DNA of 64,000 bases from positions 31,208 to 95,207 of IMG/VR virus record IMGVR_UViG_2690316068_000001. The stretch is one strand, 5' to 3'. The DNA comes from a virus. Its lineage: Duplodnaviria > Heunggongvirae > Uroviricota > Caudoviricetes. Under the pieces are notes generated by a model. It made no database searches and had not been told where the DNA came from. It saw only the letters and a program-made list of their open reading frames with translations. Below, piece after piece: positions 3,051 through 8,136 of this stretch. Position 1 is the stretch's first letter, and each line of letters opens with the position of its first letter. Both the position numbers and the translations under genes were made by a program.

Positions 3051-5311
3051 AAGAGCTGTGCTATGGATCTGTTTGCAGTGGAATTGAAGCCGCGAGTATT
3101 GCCTGGGAACCGTTGGGTATGCGTCCGGCGTGGTTTGCTGAAATCGAGCCTTTTCCATCTGCCGTTCTTGCGCACCGCTGGCCCCATGTCGCCAACCTTG
3201 GCGACATGACAAAACTTGCCAAAAAAGTCCTGGCTGGGGAAATCGAATCCCCTGATGTGCTCGTCGGGGGAACACCTTGTCAGGCATTCAGTATCGCGGG
3301 CTTACGTGGTGGGCTTGATGATGAACGCGGCGCGCTAACTTTGAAGTATGTGGAGCTTGCAAATGCAATTGACGACAAACGGTCTGAGTCCTTCCTCAAA
3401 CCGACAGTTATCGTCTGGGAAAATGTCCCAGGAGTCCTGTCATCGGCAGATAACGCCTTCGGATGTTTCCTTGCCGGATTGGCTGGAGAAGATGCGCCAT
3501 TTGAACCAGGTGATCGACCTGAATCAGGAAAAAGTAACGCGTTCTGGCGGTGGGATGGCAAAACCGGTTGCCATGCTCCAAAGTGGCCGCAGTGTGGTTG
3601 TATTTATGGACCGCAGCGAAAGGTGGCCTGGAGAATCCTTGATGCCCAATACTTCGGAGTGGCACAACGACGCCGACGCGTGTTTGTTGTCGCAAGTGCT
3701 CGAACAGACCTCGATCCCGCAACGGTACTTTTTGAGTTCGAAGGCGTGCGCCGGGATATTGCGCCGAGCCGAAAAAAGAAGGAAATCGCTTCCGCCATTA
3801 TTGCAAATGGCGCTGCAATCAGTGGCGAAAGCCTAAATCCATGCCTACACGCTGACATTCCACCCGGTATGAAATCGACGAAAGCCGTAAACGCTTTCAG
3901 GATGGCAGCATTTGGGGAATATATTGACGATGAAACCGCATCGACAGTAAAGGCAAGAGATTTTAAAGATGCCACTGACCTTGCCGTTTTTAGCAGCACA
4001 GGAGCAGGTTTTTGGTCAGAAGGGCATGGTACATTGCGGGCACGTGAGCAAGAAAGCCATGAGCATCTTGTTACATTGGCTTTTCCTGAGCGTATGAGCG
4101 GTACACAACATGCTGCAACTAAGAATACTTCACCATCTCTAATGGCTAAAAATCCAACAGCTGTTTGCTATGAAGTAAGAAACGCAGAAGTAGCTGTCCG
4201 CCGTCTTACCCCTGTCGAATGTGAAAGGCTGCAAGGTTTTCCTGATGGGCATACGTTGATCCCGACGGAAAAGCGTAAAAAAGTTAATTCAGATGAACTG
4301 GCATATCTTCGCAATCACTATCCAGATTTAAGCGAAGAAGAGGCCGCGATGCTTGCAGCTGACGGACCGCGTTACAAAGCGATCGGCAATAGTATGGCAA
4401 TACCAGTAATGCGCTGGATTGGCGATCGGATTACTAAGGCCGTATGTCGGCAGAAAGAAGGAAGTAAAACAAAAGAGCGAAAAGTTAAACCAGCGGCAGA
4501 ATTCGAACGGTCCATATTCAAATGGGCTGGTGGAAAATTTGGTGTTCTGGAACAAATCTTTCGCTATTTGCCAGAAGGGAAGCGCCTGATTGAACCTTTC
4601 GTTGGTGGCGGAGCTGTCTTCATGAATGCCGGATACCAGGAAAATCTGCTAAATGATGTGAATGCTGACCTGATTAACTTTTACAAGACTCTGCAACGCG
4701 AGGCGCATTCACTTATCACTCTGGCACATCGTTTCTTCCAGGACTACAACACACAGGAAGGATACCTGGCAGTACGGAATGCGTTTAACAAACAAGTCTA
4801 TGATGATTTACATCGCGCAGCGGCGTTTTTGTTCCTGAACCGACATTGTTTTAACGGATTGACGCGTTACAACCAGGCTGGTGAGTTCAATGTCGGTTAT
4901 GGGAAGTATAAAACTCCGTATTTCCCATTACAGGAGATGGAAGCCTTCCTCGGTGCGGAAGGGCGGTCTGAGTTTGTATGCGGTGATTTTGCAGCGGTGA
5001 TTGAAGCTGCCGGAGAAGGAGATGTCATCTTTTGCGATCCGCCGTATGAACCGCTTCCAAATACAGAGGGATTCACGAACTATTCCGGTCATGACTTTAA
5101 GTTTGAAGAGCAAAAACGCCTGGTGTCTCTGTTGACGGATGCTCATCGTCGAGGTGCAAAGGTTCTCATTACTAACAGTGGCGCGCCAAATATCAGAGAG
5201 CTTTATCATGACAGTGGCTTCAGAGTGGAACCTCTTTTTGCCAGACGTTCTGTGTCTTGTAAGGGGGACACTCGAGGTGTAGCTCATGACGTTTTAGGTA
5301 TATTGCTCTAA
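3047..5311 (+). CDS. dmt: bifunctional DNA methyltransferase (N-terminal C5-cytosine, C-terminal N6-adenine Dam-like)
   Basis: 754 aa; [11 protein letters not shown] (C5-MTase PCQ motif) and ENVPG in N-terminal half; FCDPPYEP (DPPY N6-MTase motif) in C-terminal half; same length and architecture as P1 Dmt. Confidence 0.85.
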
Positions 5312-5330
5312 TAAATTTATTAGTGTAATA
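5302..5330. promoter_or_regulatory. overlapping inverted pair of C1 operator-like sites
   Basis: ATTGCTCTAATAAATTT at 5302-5318 overlapping inverted half AAATTTATTAGTGTAAT at 5314-5330, at dmt stop codon. Confidence 0.55.
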
Positions 5331-5984
5331 TCGCCTCAATGAATCGTGATTTATAGAGCGATTTAGCTGTTAGCCGCGACAGGCGCGGCGGTAAGCATGG
5401 CTGGGCCTAGTCCTCCCAGACAAACCACCGAGTTGCCAGGTTGACCATGCGCCTAAGTGGCAACTCCGAAGTGCGTTACGAGCTTCCAGTTTGCCCATCT
5501 TCGGGTGGGCGTTTTTTTTCAGGGTTTTCGTCATGGTTAGCGACTTTGCGGCGGTTTAGAAACTGACCATTAAAGTAAATGCAAACGATGATCTGATGAT
5601 GGTAGCGGCCTAAGAAGCCAGACGCCACGGGGTATGAGTCGTCCCCCGTCAAAAAATCGACCGCAGAGTGTCCCCGTCTGTGTATTAGGGAACGGGGAGA
5701 CACAACAGGTAAGGGCGCTGGTGTGATTAACCAGATGAACGAGAAGGGGCCATCTGTTGGTCAGCGTCCTTTCCTGTTGCGTTTTCTTTTCAGCGTAACA
5801 GCGGTGCTTAACAGCACTTTGGGTACAGTTCCACGAATTTACGGGTATATCCCGTCATGCTGAAAGCGCTAATCACGCTGGAAGCCAGGGTTATGCATCC
5901 CCTGTTACCGAATTGCAGCCAGGGCGCGGTGCGCCGAAAAGCATACGGAGGTGGAAGCCCTCGCCGGAGACGTACCCGGCAAGT

Positions 5985-6060
5985 GATGGTGTAGCTCAGC
6001 GGTTAGAGCGGTTGACTGTTAATCAACGGGTCGATGGTTCAAATCCATCCACCATCGCCA
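5985..6060 (+). tRNA. tRNA-Asn (anticodon GTT)
   Basis: 76-nt cloverleaf folded by hand: acceptor GATGGTG/CACCATC, D-arm TAGCTCAGCGGTTAGAGC, anticodon loop CTGTTAA, T-arm GATGG-TTCAAAT-CCATC, encoded CCA. Confidence 0.9.
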
Positions 6061-6062
6061 AT

Positions 6063-6138
6063 GCCGGTTTAGCTCAGTTGGTAGAGCGCCTGCCTTGTAA
6101 GCAGGATGTCAGCGGTTCGAGTCCGTTAATCGGCACCA
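6063..6138 (+). tRNA. tRNA-Thr (anticodon TGT)
   Basis: 76-nt cloverleaf: acceptor GCCGGTT/AATCGGC, anticodon loop CTTGTAA, T-loop TTCGAGT, encoded CCA. Confidence 0.9.
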
Positions 6139-7065
6139 GCACAACAGGTAAGGGTATTTTGCGACGTCGGAGATCGCCGAGCTTGGCAGAGGGTTCGAAT
6201 CCCTACGAAGTACCCTTACCGTTGTGATGAATGCGCAGGCTGATGCGCGAAAGACATTGCAGCTATTGCGGAAAAGAGCTGTTCGGCGGGGCAATTAAAC
6301 GCCCGTGAGAGTCTGAAATAACCGCAAGCCGGAGATCAGCACCGGTCATCACAACACAACAGGTAAGGGCATTCTCCCTTATGGGGCTTGGCTTAAATGC
6401 ATCGAGTGCTCTTACCGTTGTGATGAAGTGCAGCTCTTTGAAGCAACCAGAAGATAAGCATCTGGCTTCACAACATAAACCGCAGGAACGACCAATAAAC
6501 GGTAGTCCGTATGGAGAACACCCCGTTGAGGAAGAGGCCTGGCCGGAACCGTAACCGGCACTACAACGTTGAGAACACTGGCGTAACGGGGTCATATCCC
6601 AATCTACGAATAAATGTTGCGTTGCAGCGTGACAACCAGTGTTCTCAACATTGTGGTGAATGCACAGGCTGATGTGCCGCAACTACAGTAGTGCGCGCTT
6701 TGCGGGGCTTGCTACAACCCTGTGTCGGAGTTCAGCACCGACCATCACAGTTTGATTCTCTGGCATGAGCATAACGCTGAAATAAGTCCAGTCTGGTGCG
6801 GCCCGATCACCCGCCGTTAGCTCCACGAAACGGAGCACGTAACAGGTAAGAGCATTCTCCTGTAACGGGTTCATATCCCAATCTACAGGTCCACCAGGAA
6901 TGCTCTTTCCGTTGCGGTGAATGCGGCTAAGCGCACGCGGAACAGTTAAAACAATCCTCCTTAATGGTTAAACATTCCGACGTTAATTGTTAACTGGTTA
7001 ACGTCACCGGGAGGCACTCGGCACCGCAATCTAATAAATATGTCACTTTTATTGAGGGATAACCA

Positions 7066-7500
7066 ATGTTCGGTAAATTGTTCGGCAAGAAAGTCGCTTC
7101 TGCAAAAGTAGAGCTGAAAAAAGTTGAGAATCGCGATCTGATGGAGGCCATCATCGGTGGCTGTTTGTTGGTGTCTGCCGCTGATGGTGAAATCGAAAAA
7201 GAAGAAACAGCGAAACTTGATCAGCTTGTCCGCTCTAATCCGCGTCTTAGTCATTTTGGTAACGAAATTACTGCAACAATTACCCGCTTTACCGAGCAAC
7301 TGGAAGCTGGCTTCCGTGTTGGTCGCATGAATATCCTTCGCGAAATTGAAGATATCAAAAACGATCCAAAAGAAGCGGAAGAAGTATTCGTTAACATGCT
7401 GACAATTGCAGAAGCGGACGGTGAAATCGAGCCAGCAGAACACAAAGTACTGGAAGAAGTAGGCCGTCGTTTAGGTCTTCGTGTGGAAGATTATCTGTAA
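7066..7500 (+). CDS. TerB-family protein (tellurite-resistance TerB-like; P1 tci-like)
   Basis: 144 aa; internal duplication of ...ADGEIE... motifs (VSAADGEIEKEE and IAEADGEIEPAE) typical of TerB domain; sits between tRNA genes as the tci genes do in P1. Confidence 0.65.
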   Translation: MFGKLFGKKVASAKVELKKVENRDLMEAIIGGCLLVSAADGEIEKEETAKLDQLVRSNPRLSHFGNEITATITRFTEQLEAGFRVGRMNILREIEDIKNDPKEAEEVFVNMLTIAEADGEIEPAEHKVLEEVGRRLGLRVEDYL

Positions 7501-7774: not shown

Positions 7775-7850
7775 GGCCCTTTAGCTCAGTGGTTAGAGCT
7801 GGCGACTCATAATCGCACGGTCACCGGTTCAAGTCCGGTAGGGGCCACCA
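7775..7850 (+). tRNA. tRNA-Ile2-like (anticodon CAT, lysidine type) or tRNA-Met
   Basis: 76-nt cloverleaf; near-identical in layout to E. coli ileX (GGCCC.TTAGCTCAGTGGTTAGAGC...CTCATAA...GGTTCAAGTCC...GGGGCCACCA). Confidence 0.9.
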
Positions 7851-8136
7851 TATTTGGTTGTAACACGGCGTCTGGCACATGCGTCGTTAGCGGTCTGGTG
7901 ACGTTAAAAGGGGGGAACCTTGCCCCTAGCTCAGGCAACGAACCAGGTAGCCGGAATGTGCAAGCCACCGTTTGTTGTTTCTCGGGTAAAGGGATTCACC
8001 ATCCTGGCGATTCGGTGTGACAGCCGGGAAGAGTCCGGCGCATTAATCCTGATTTTCTGGTGATGACTCATATCGTTAGGAGTGATTTGAGTATGCCGAT
8101 TATATCTGACATTCAGCACGCCTGGGTGGAGTGCTA

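Follow-up and report, generated by a model that had tools for sequence, protein, structure and literature searches.

RNA hairpins with conserved arms and variable centres in the predicted ban-operon leader of a P1-like phage-plasmid

We analysed a 64 kb stretch of a P1-like phage-plasmid (the window; unit searches covered its full length on both strands) and detected an array of five imperfect hairpins that share conserved arms around variable centres. The hairpins alternate with STnc100-like elements and with two tRNAs in positions 5332-7066, which are predicted to be the untranslated leader (1.7 kb, + strand) of the C1-repressed ban operon. The hairpin acts as RNA in the sense orientation and belongs to a family that was not found in Rfam or in the searchable literature; its components are related to known elements, namely STnc100/PasD, DicF operons, N-leader structures and RNase III sites. 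We tentatively suggest that the hairpins are structured spacers and cleavage sites in an array of stable RNAs.

The covariance model R1, built from the arm sequences of the family, matched exactly five units in the window, all on the + strand (30-44 bits, E<=1.3e-6; next match E=0.78), a result that speaks for uniqueness within the window and not for independent discovery, since the training set of R1 held these units or near-identical copies. A preliminary description of the stretch, made from the sequence alone, had recognised at least four units with shared boundaries; the repeats are real, but their number is five. The 5' motif AACAGGTAAGRGY occurs in four copies (5704, 6143, 6358 and 6841, all +; shuffles expect 0.00) and the 3' motif CTTWCCGTTGYGRTGAA in four (6215, 6411, 6644 and 6905), the latter with just two unrelated hits, at 3 mismatches, elsewhere in the window. 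Because the units number five, the two motifs mark different sets of four. The inverted repeats reported as additional at 6545-6660 are present, but they are not separate and constitute the fifth unit, U4. Folding of each unit gave an imperfect hairpin of 19-25 base pairs (bp), with a minimum free energy (MFE) of -33 to -48 kcal/mol in all five and z of -5.0 to -8.3, and 0 of 200 shuffles folded as well, in agreement with the proposal that the boundaries pair into a long stem around a variable core.

The arms of U1 are ACAACAGGTAAGGGCGCTG and CAGCGTCCTTTCCTGTTG; its 5' motif is present and its 3' side is divergent. U2 begins 1-4 nucleotides (nt) past the CCA end of tRNA-Thr, and its stem (6140-6226) surrounds a three-way junction, the centre holding the T-arm fragment AGGGTTCGAATCCCT (6190-6204). 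The 3' arm of U3 (GUGCUCUUACC) has a lambda-type BoxA-like octamer (UGCUCUUA) inside. U4 is a divergent member (ACAACGTTGAGAACACTGG / CCAGTGTTCTCAACATTGT) with the 3' motif only and a 5' arm that carries compensatory changes; it overlaps the inverted repeat I1 (23 nt, 91% complementary), and the recurrent motif ACGGGGTCATATCCCAATCTAC lies in its centre. The 3' arm of U5 (AUGCUCUUUCC) matches UGCUCUUU, the core of the rrn BoxA, its centre contains ACGGGTTCATATCCCAATCTAC, and a small hairpin, GCUCCACGAAACGGAGC (6818-6836), stands directly 5' of it.

Table 1. Features of the window in and around the hairpin array. Positions are those of the 64 kb stretch.
Feature	Positions	Strand	Basis or remark
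Hairpin unit U1	5698-5788	+	R1 30.2 bits, E=1.3e-6; MFE -40.9 kcal/mol, z -5.0
Hairpin unit U2	6137-6233	+	R1 40.9 bits; MFE -40.5 kcal/mol, z -5.9
Hairpin unit U3	6352-6429	+	R1 40.6 bits; MFE -33.0 kcal/mol, z -6.7
Hairpin unit U4	6559-6662	+	R1 43.9 bits; MFE -47.9 kcal/mol, z -8.3
Hairpin unit U5	6835-6923	+	R1 39.1 bits; MFE -33.9 kcal/mol, z -6.8; direct repeat D5
Module B copy B1	6221-6355	+	closing stem GUGAUGA/UCAUCAC; first hairpin GCGCAGGCUGAUGCGC, last hairpin CCGGAGAUCAGCACCGG
Module B copy B2	6417-6475	+	short module B form; repeat family D3
Module B copy B3	6650-6752	+	repeat families D1, D3
Module B copy B4	6911-7030	+	STnc100-like element of the 5' untranslated region; closing stem z -3.1
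dmt	ends 5311		P1 annotation
Bivalent C1 operator Op72ab with overlapping promoters P1ban/P2ban	operator 5302-5329; with promoters ~5302-5331	+	P1 annotation, 99% alignment
'dicF-like region' of the P1 annotation (leader RNA block)	5375-5519	+	alignment to P1
Intrinsic terminator closing the 'dicF-like region'	stem 5492-5511 and T8 run, to 5519	+	GAAGTGCGTTACGAGCTTCCAGTTTGCCCATCTTCGGGTGGGCGTTTTTTTT
tRNA-Asn (GTT)	5985-6060	+	ARAGORN and Rfam, 74.5 bits
tRNA-Thr (TGT)	6063-6138	+	ARAGORN and Rfam, 72.9 bits
tRNA-Met/Ile2	7775-7850		ARAGORN and Rfam; precedes ban
tciA (TerB family), predicted first protein-coding gene of the transcript	7066-7500	+	followed by tciB, tciC
Open reading frame 'plp' of P1	6263-6682	-	139 aa
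Open reading frame 'upl' of P1	6683-6874	-	63 aa

Two short elements recur in and beside the units. The motif ACGGGnYCATAWCCCAATCYA, which forms a hairpin of 3 bp (GGG/CCC) around a loop of 7 nt and is T-arm-like without A58, was found at 6586-6607 and 6865-6886, in mEp460 (L006 2733-2752) and at three further loci (L093, L056, L076), in the centres of unrelated P1-like and lambdoid units and after a tRNA-Arg. Upstream of the units there is usually a small GC hairpin, rich in purines in its loop, and then CAC (6818-6836 here, many in L014-L133); examples are GCUCCA-CGAAA-CGGAGC, CCGG-GAAAGA-CCGG and CCUCG-GAAGAGA-CGAGG, whose stems covary and whose loops are reminiscent of lambda boxB (GAAAA/GAAGA).

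For covariation analysis we aligned the arms of 47 distinct units, drawn from elements of the P1-like, SSU5-like and lambdoid kinds, with the centre replaced by GAAA and the bulged A removed where present. Pairing was found in 94.8% of the stem cells, versus 78% with shuffled partners and 35-60% in slid-register controls, and G-U pairs outnumbered A-C mismatches (71 versus 17); both figures are biased somewhat upward, since units entered the set only if they folded on the + strand with at least 12 bp, and their strand was set by context, not by folding. Changes on both sides were detected at 17 of the 19 stem pairs, these being compensatory changes of the kind that the preliminary description had proposed to look for by alignment, and 0 of 500 shuffles reached any covariation measure. 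On the + strand the MFE was better than on the - strand by 5.4-9.7 kcal/mol in 5/5 window units, and R1 scored the + strand 10-24 bits above the - strand. The hairpin acts as RNA in the sense orientation because of this covariation, the prevalence of G-U over A-C and the energy advantage of the + strand, and the units are conserved structured RNAs, as had been suspected. The stem conserves, as irregularities, a base of 5-6 bp, (C)ACAAC/GUUGU(G), together with a bulged A and frequently a U.U mismatch.

The hairpins alternate with a second repeat family, here called module B, with four copies, all on the + strand. Each starts with G(U/C)G(A/G)UGAAU and a small GC hairpin and ends with a second hairpin and UCAUCAC(AAC); the two ends pair, closing the module. 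The conserved 3' boundary of the units is the end of the hairpin fused to the start of module B, and the boundary described earlier, which does recur, belongs in part to the STnc100-like module that follows and with which it had been merged. A stretch of 137 nt in the early-left leaders of mEp460 and several Stx2 phages, which are lambdoid, is 98% identical to B1, and B2 also occurs in SSU5-like phage-plasmids of Klebsiella and E. coli. The small hairpin of B3 (GCACAGGCUGAUGUGC) covaries with that of B1, and its last hairpin (GUCGGAGUUCAGCACCGAC) with those of B1 and B2, the changes being GCGCA/UGCGC versus GCACA/UGUGC in the small hairpins and CCGG/CCGG versus GUCGG/CCGAC versus CCAGA/UCUGG.

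B4, directly 5' of the tciA ribosome-binding site, matched the Rfam model of STnc100 (RF02076) at 6913-7028 (42.0 bits, E=2.8e-7, model positions 31-147), below the gathering score of 47; the STnc100 copy of the Rac prophage scores just 43.8 bits against the same model. The Rfam scan proposed in the preliminary description returned this match besides the tRNAs, and the hairpin units gave no match to the STnc100 model. STnc100 is a prophage small RNA (sRNA) and a relative of PasD (bioRxiv 10.64898/2026.05.13.724894; PMC12370729). The modules share with STnc100/PasD the sequence GGUGAAU, the small hairpin, CCGG-loop-CCGG, CACC and the terminal closing stem; unlike STnc100/PasD, they sit in P1 inside a long leader and are not free-standing genes, and the hairpin units themselves are not STnc100. 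The STnc100-like element of the K-12 Qin prophage (L160 1640-1790, between dicF and dicB) has a closing stem extended to ~20 bp (GUGAAUUUUGUGAUG...CAUCACAAAAUUCAU), which sits immediately 5' of the dicB ribosome-binding site and is a likely site of the reported RNase III cut that forms the DicF 3' end.

The family extends far beyond the window. A scan of IMG/VR for the junction CGTTGTGRTGAATGC found at least 120 loci with 94 distinct upstream contexts; the arms CACAACAGGTAAGAGCATTG ... CAGTGCTCTTTCCGTTGTG are common to nearly all of them, and the centres (25-96 nt) are mutually unrelated. R1 gave 110 matches in 100 of the IMG/VR loci, and about 30 of the 110 represent a 56-nt minimal form without a centre, the commonest form among the IMG/VR loci scanned; the existence of this variant indicates that the centre is dispensable. 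SSU5-like phage-plasmids of E. coli and Klebsiella have other arm sequences (e.g., ACAACGTTGAGGCCA/TGGCCTCAACGTTGT and ACAGCGTTGAGCGGT/ACCGCTCAACGCTGT) with the same architecture and base. The exact 3' motif was also detected in Serratia, Pantoea, Erwinia, Kluyvera, Citrobacter, Kosakonia and other Enterobacterales, where the arms hardly vary and the centres, once more, are unrelated. The exact motif additionally occurs on contigs labelled Martelella alba and as metagenome-assembled genomes of Geobacteraceae and Clostridia (L147, L148, L150), which are probably contaminating or mis-binned enterobacterial prophage DNA.

Parts of one block (unit, module B, DicF, unit) are held by 2799 of 5426 complete E. 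coli genomes, in which it is annotated as nothing or as a hypothetical protein, and 1025 PLSDB plasmids carry parts of 5690-6960, an interval that is 100% identical in an Escherichia albertii plasmid. The family is very common: over 1000 plasmids and about half of the complete E. coli genomes carry it, and its exact boundary motif recurs across the Enterobacterales. It has no counterpart in Rfam 15, and the literature searched had nothing specific on transcripts of the P1 ban leader, on hairpins in the tRNA arrays of phage-plasmids or on sites of RNase III close to dicF or kilR.

Without exception the units lie in sense orientation within a leader that is untranslated and controlled by a repressor (Pban/Op72 of P1, mEp460/Stx2 phages, Rac and Qin). 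The order in mEp460/Stx2 phages is CI gene, operator/promoter, module C (a conserved block, see below), hairpin, module B, DicF-like sRNA with terminator, hairpin and first gene; in Rac it is hairpin, DicF, STnc100 and kilR; and in K-12 Qin a weak unit is followed by the block that the P1 annotation calls 'dicF-like', dicF, the STnc100-like element and dicB. Some units follow directly on the intrinsic terminator of an sRNA that lies upstream. In lambda, 933W and P22, boxA-boxB is followed, before N, by a large closing-stem structure (GGUGUGGUGAAGG...CCACACCACC) that resembles module B. The family links DicF, STnc100/PasD, phage tRNA clusters and lambdoid N-leader structures into one common set of non-coding modules that are transcribed together and governed by prophage repressors.

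Relative to the window, P1 lacks exactly 196 nt between two 3'-boundary repeats, supporting the view that the number of units shifts among relatives through recombination between the repeats. The earlier suggestion of integration/recombination hotspots is to this extent upheld; its integration part found no support.

Our preferred reading, held tentatively, is that the hairpins may serve as structured spacers and as double-stranded cleavage sites, probably for RNase III, in a stable-RNA array. One transcript from the C1-repressed Pban would form an array of self-closing RNA domains, composed of the DicF-region-like leader RNA, the hairpins, two tRNAs (more in relatives), the STnc100-like modules and the tciABC-ban mRNA. 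The hairpins would keep adjoining tRNAs and small RNAs folding independently and would leave little single-stranded RNA in a 1.7-kb ribosome-free leader, and their imperfect stems of ~20-25 bp, with the bulged A and the U.U mismatch, would offer double-stranded cut sites, most plausibly to RNase III. Cuts in the stems would divide the array into its parts and detach the stable RNAs from the mRNA that follows. The hypervariable centres may be cargo or debris, many of them fragments of former tRNA genes, and could be lost wholly without loss of the element. An understanding of how such arrays escape termination and get cut would help explain the production of prophage sRNAs and phage tRNAs on induction, and thousands of genomes could be annotated better with it.

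We favour this spacer and cleavage role because conserved sense-strand RNA helices, bulged and about two turns long, stand exactly where tRNAs, sRNA terminators and STnc100-like modules adjoin, because the units are confined to ribosome-free leaders, because the centre is dispensable, because RNase III offers precedents and because the leader is more structured than its shuffles (z -6.0; adjacent coding DNA z -3.8 and -0.8). The unit stems fit the form of an RNase III substrate in length (19-25 bp), conserved bulged A and U.U mismatch. E. coli RNase III needs about two helical turns (~20-22 bp), and bulge-directed cleavage has been reported (PMC11745405); its action in the dicB operon is a precedent (PMC11745405, PMC5371410), and RNase III reportedly frees tRNA-fMet in the metY-nusA operon (Regnier 1989, cited in PMC5371410). 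Like the RNase III hairpins of the lambda N leader, the T7 early region, the dicB operon and metY-nusA, the units are long bulged stems between functional RNAs in polycistronic transcripts, in repressor-controlled phage early operons and beside DicF and tRNAs; unlike in those systems, here we infer the cleavage, the enzyme and the effect on expression alike, the arms are conserved beyond the needs of RNase III, the centres are hypervariable and one leader holds several copies. In the lambda N leader the large closing-stem structure, an RNase III site, stands at the homologous position.

Several points weigh against such a role, the gathering criterion given with the covariation among them. Whereas RNase III asks little of the sequence that it cuts, the arms hardly vary between Escherichia and Pantoea, Serratia or Erwinia, which implies a sequence-specific partner that a spacer model does not name. 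Some stems (U3, U5) are nearer 19 than 22 bp, the excess of structure in the leader over coding DNA is merely moderate, the maturation of tRNAs in E. coli, to our knowledge, normally proceeds without need of RNase III, and the literature searched yielded no expression or cleavage data for any unit.

The main rival, possible although unlikely, is antitermination of the nut/BoxA type, in which a BoxA in the 3' arm would recruit NusB/NusE and make the polymerase resist Rho and intrinsic terminators, with a possible unknown N-like protein on the adjoining small hairpin and with the 5' arm masking BoxA as a switch. Near-invariant arms across genera would fit a conserved host protein as partner, and internal terminators (DicF-like ones) do occur in the arrays, 5' of genes. 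The family 3' consensus CAGUGCUCUUUCCGUUGUGAUGAAUGCGCAGGCUGAUGCGCGAAAG aligns with P22 nutL (CAACGCUCUUUAAC..GAUGA.UGCGCUGACAAAGCGCGAAC); common to both are the BoxA-like octamer (here in the 3' arm), the GAUGA spacer and a GC hairpin of 5 bp. The units also have the nutL position relative to the promoter, and the module 3' of them looks like the N-leader structure that lambda, 933W and P22 possess; the early-left region of the mEp460/Stx2 type has no annotated N. A BoxA consensus (GCUCUUUA or lambda-type GCUCUUA) was found in U3, in U5, where it equals the rrn BoxA core, and in most lambdoid members.

BoxA is the 8-nt site of NusB/NusE (PMC3177189). It must be single-stranded for this function, yet in the units it is held in a hairpin of -33 to -48 kcal/mol, and U1, U2 and U4 as well as the SSU5-type units (GGCCUCAAC, CGCUCAAC) keep the structure without a good BoxA. 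Further, the loop of the small hairpin is not conserved across the STnc100-like modules, the genes that follow the units are kilR, tciA and an HD hydrolase or hypothetical genes, not N-like ones, and the only predicted terminator of P1 is upstream of all units. An Arg-rich N-like open reading frame (ORF) downstream of units was not seen, in a search that was not exhaustive. We dismissed the BoxA-like GCUCUUUGAAGCAA in B2, since relatives have GCUCGUU and GAUCUUA there, and rejected homology of the hairpin to the H-19B/933W nut sites, the nut regions of 933W having no unit; in 933W only the N-leader closing-stem structure resembles module B. The put RNA of HK022, an N-less lambdoid phage, is likewise a structured cis-acting RNA just 3' of early promoters, but homology was rejected, as the PL-nun interval shares no motif with units or module B and no sequence or structural similarity to the units was found.

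It is rather unlikely that the units are decaying tRNA-linked repeats without a function of their own. On this view, homologous recombination between temperate phages would have multiplied and reshuffled remnants of tRNA genes with their flanks, which would serve mainly as recombination junctions and whose arms would stay alike because gene conversion and horizontal transfer are frequent. A precedent is offered by the tRNA-linked repeats of the tyrT type in E. coli. A T-arm without a cloverleaf had been noticed in the unit at 6141-6240, and the U2 fragment AGGGTTCGAATCCCT does have the T-arm form (4-5 bp stem, 7-nt loop UUCRANY). Strict T-arm hairpins, with a stem of at least 4 bp and a loop TTCRANN, were found in 6 of 55 representative unit centres versus 0.06 expected, an enrichment of about 100-fold; one unit (L133 3668-3779) folds with a cloverleaf-like centre; copy number and tRNA content vary among close relatives, with breakpoints in the repeats; and B1 is nearly the same in P1-like and lambdoid phages. 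What speaks against this explanation is that compensatory changes keep the stem in lineages whose sequence has drifted, that the strand-specific use of G-U indicates selection on RNA, that most family members, including most units in other genera, have no tRNA nearby, and that the commonest form is the minimal one, with no tRNA remnant.

The tRNA callers agree. ARAGORN and the Rfam tRNA model (RF00005) called only Asn, Thr and Met/Ile2 in the window, confirming that units are interleaved with tRNA-Asn and tRNA-Thr, and called no unit, U2 included; on the T-arm-bearing unit centres of 8 other loci the tRNA model gave no match at E<=1. Genuine tRNAs stand always beside units and never within them, one E. 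coli prophage unit ending 0 nt before a tRNA-Arg. The tRNA-derived material is thus a frequent passenger and not the defining feature of the family, so the suggestion of tRNA-derived RNAs applies to fragments in some centres and fails for whole units. As in tyrT/rtT repeats and tRNA pseudogene fragments, pieces of the tRNA 3' half (T-arm) are repeated beside tRNA genes, but here the flanking stem and not the tRNA piece is conserved, most units hold no tRNA fragment, and no Rfam rtT or tRNA match was obtained on the units. Whole units as tRNAs or pseudo-tRNAs were rejected on the silence of both callers, and a 'tRNA cassette' with tRNAs nested in the arms was rejected because the tRNAs adjoin the units and only one cloverleaf-like centre was found. 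A relationship to YrlA/Y RNAs was rejected as well, the sole match (25.6 bits) lying spuriously across the real tRNAs, and matches to Rfam microRNA-precursor models (mir-142, mir-465 and others) are far under the gathering score and reflect hairpin shape.

We consider it improbable that the stem is a dedicated scaffold comparable to a primary microRNA hairpin, whose lower stem a conserved host factor would cut so that the hypervariable centre is released or displayed as a small RNA; the invariant lower stem (bulged A, U.U mismatch, GGUAAGAGCA/UGCUCUUUCC) would then, with the same low probability, be the part that is recognised. If this were true, temperate phages would swap regulatory or decoy RNAs, including mimics of tRNA arms, within a fixed cassette fired on induction.

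An element that works as DNA, namely a cruciform or hairpin site of the integron attC type, a miniature transposable element or a protein operator, is very unlikely. Both arms are conserved in sequence, the centres behave as exchangeable cassettes, and the arm bases AAC...GTT resemble the R''/R' boxes of attC. The G-U excess and the favoured + strand argue against it, as a site in duplex DNA would be symmetric; orientation is constant relative to transcription, no target-site duplications were found, the flanks being inverted (CAC...GTG), and the units have neither an integrase nor a transposase associated with them and occur only inside RNA arrays. A miniature inverted-repeat transposable element or an attC site was accordingly rejected on orientation, strand asymmetry and context.

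That the interval encodes Plp and Upl on the - strand, as in the P1 annotation, with the repeats incidental to them, is hardly credible, although both ORFs are present, Upl matches two PHROGs of unknown function (both built from P1-like annotations) and third-position substitutions are slightly commoner among relatives. Substitutions at codon positions 1/2/3 number 15/13/25 in plp and 14/16/21 in upl (25 of 53 and 21 of 51 at the third), a bias that is not significant in a low-power test (chi-square estimates of p about 0.1 and 0.5). Neither protein has a Pfam match and Plp has no PHROG match; Plp has 125 aa in P1 versus 139 aa here through the 196-nt indel, which is not a multiple of 3 and equals the spacing between two 3'-boundary repeats; homology blocks to relatives stop at RNA-module boundaries within plp/upl; RefSeq annotates nothing there in most of the 1025 plasmids; and the RNA structures of the + strand account for the sequence base by base. 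We conclude that plp and upl are probably not genes, as the preliminary description had supposed of the ORFs predicted here. In P1, a workhorse phage, 0.6 kb of the ban-operon leader is annotated as Plp and Upl, two doubtful coding sequences and probable artefacts that mask a conserved RNA array.

The layout in Table 1 was transferred from the curated P1 annotation (NC_005856) through a 99% alignment, positions 5300-7100 of the window sharing 97-99% identity with phage P1 records. This annotation also suggests a single transcript that would start at Pban and span the array, with tciABC (from 7066), tRNA-Ile2 and ban following the plp/upl ORFs. An inverted repeat, I2 (5300-5331), lies over Op72ab. 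The 'dicF-like region' is homologous to the stretch 5' of dicF in E. coli K-12 Qin (L160 1475-1560) and not to DicF itself, and DicF (RF00039) had no Rfam match in 5300-7100 at E<=10. In the place of DicF this region has a different sRNA-like 3' end with the strong terminator GAAGTGCGTTACGAGCTTCCAGTTTGCCCATCTTCGGGTGGGCGTTTTTTTT, and 5375-5519 may represent an undescribed C1-controlled sRNA.

P1-like and SSU5-like relatives (L003, L004, L005, L008-L013) differ in the tRNAs of their arrays. The first is Asn or Arg(TCT), Tyr(GTA) can stand as an insertion between Asn and Thr, and a Ser(UGA), whose variable arm is long, can be placed before the last hairpin; the window has just Asn and Thr. Between tRNA-Ile2 and ban, at 7853-8045, we found the non-coding conserved module C (TTTGGTTGTAACACGGCGTCTGGCACATGCGTCGTTAGCGGTCTGG...GGTAGCCGGAATGTGCAAG...GCCGGGAAGAGTCCGGC), which also forms the start of the early-left leader in mEp460 (L006 2256-2435) and, in a prophage of an E. 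coli chromosome (L140 1335-1510), stands 5' of a hairpin unit. In mEp460 (L006 1-158) we additionally detected an IsrK sRNA (67 bits) and a partial match to the C4 antisense RNA beside the antirepressor gene, this region and the hairpin array lying on opposite sides of the immunity region.

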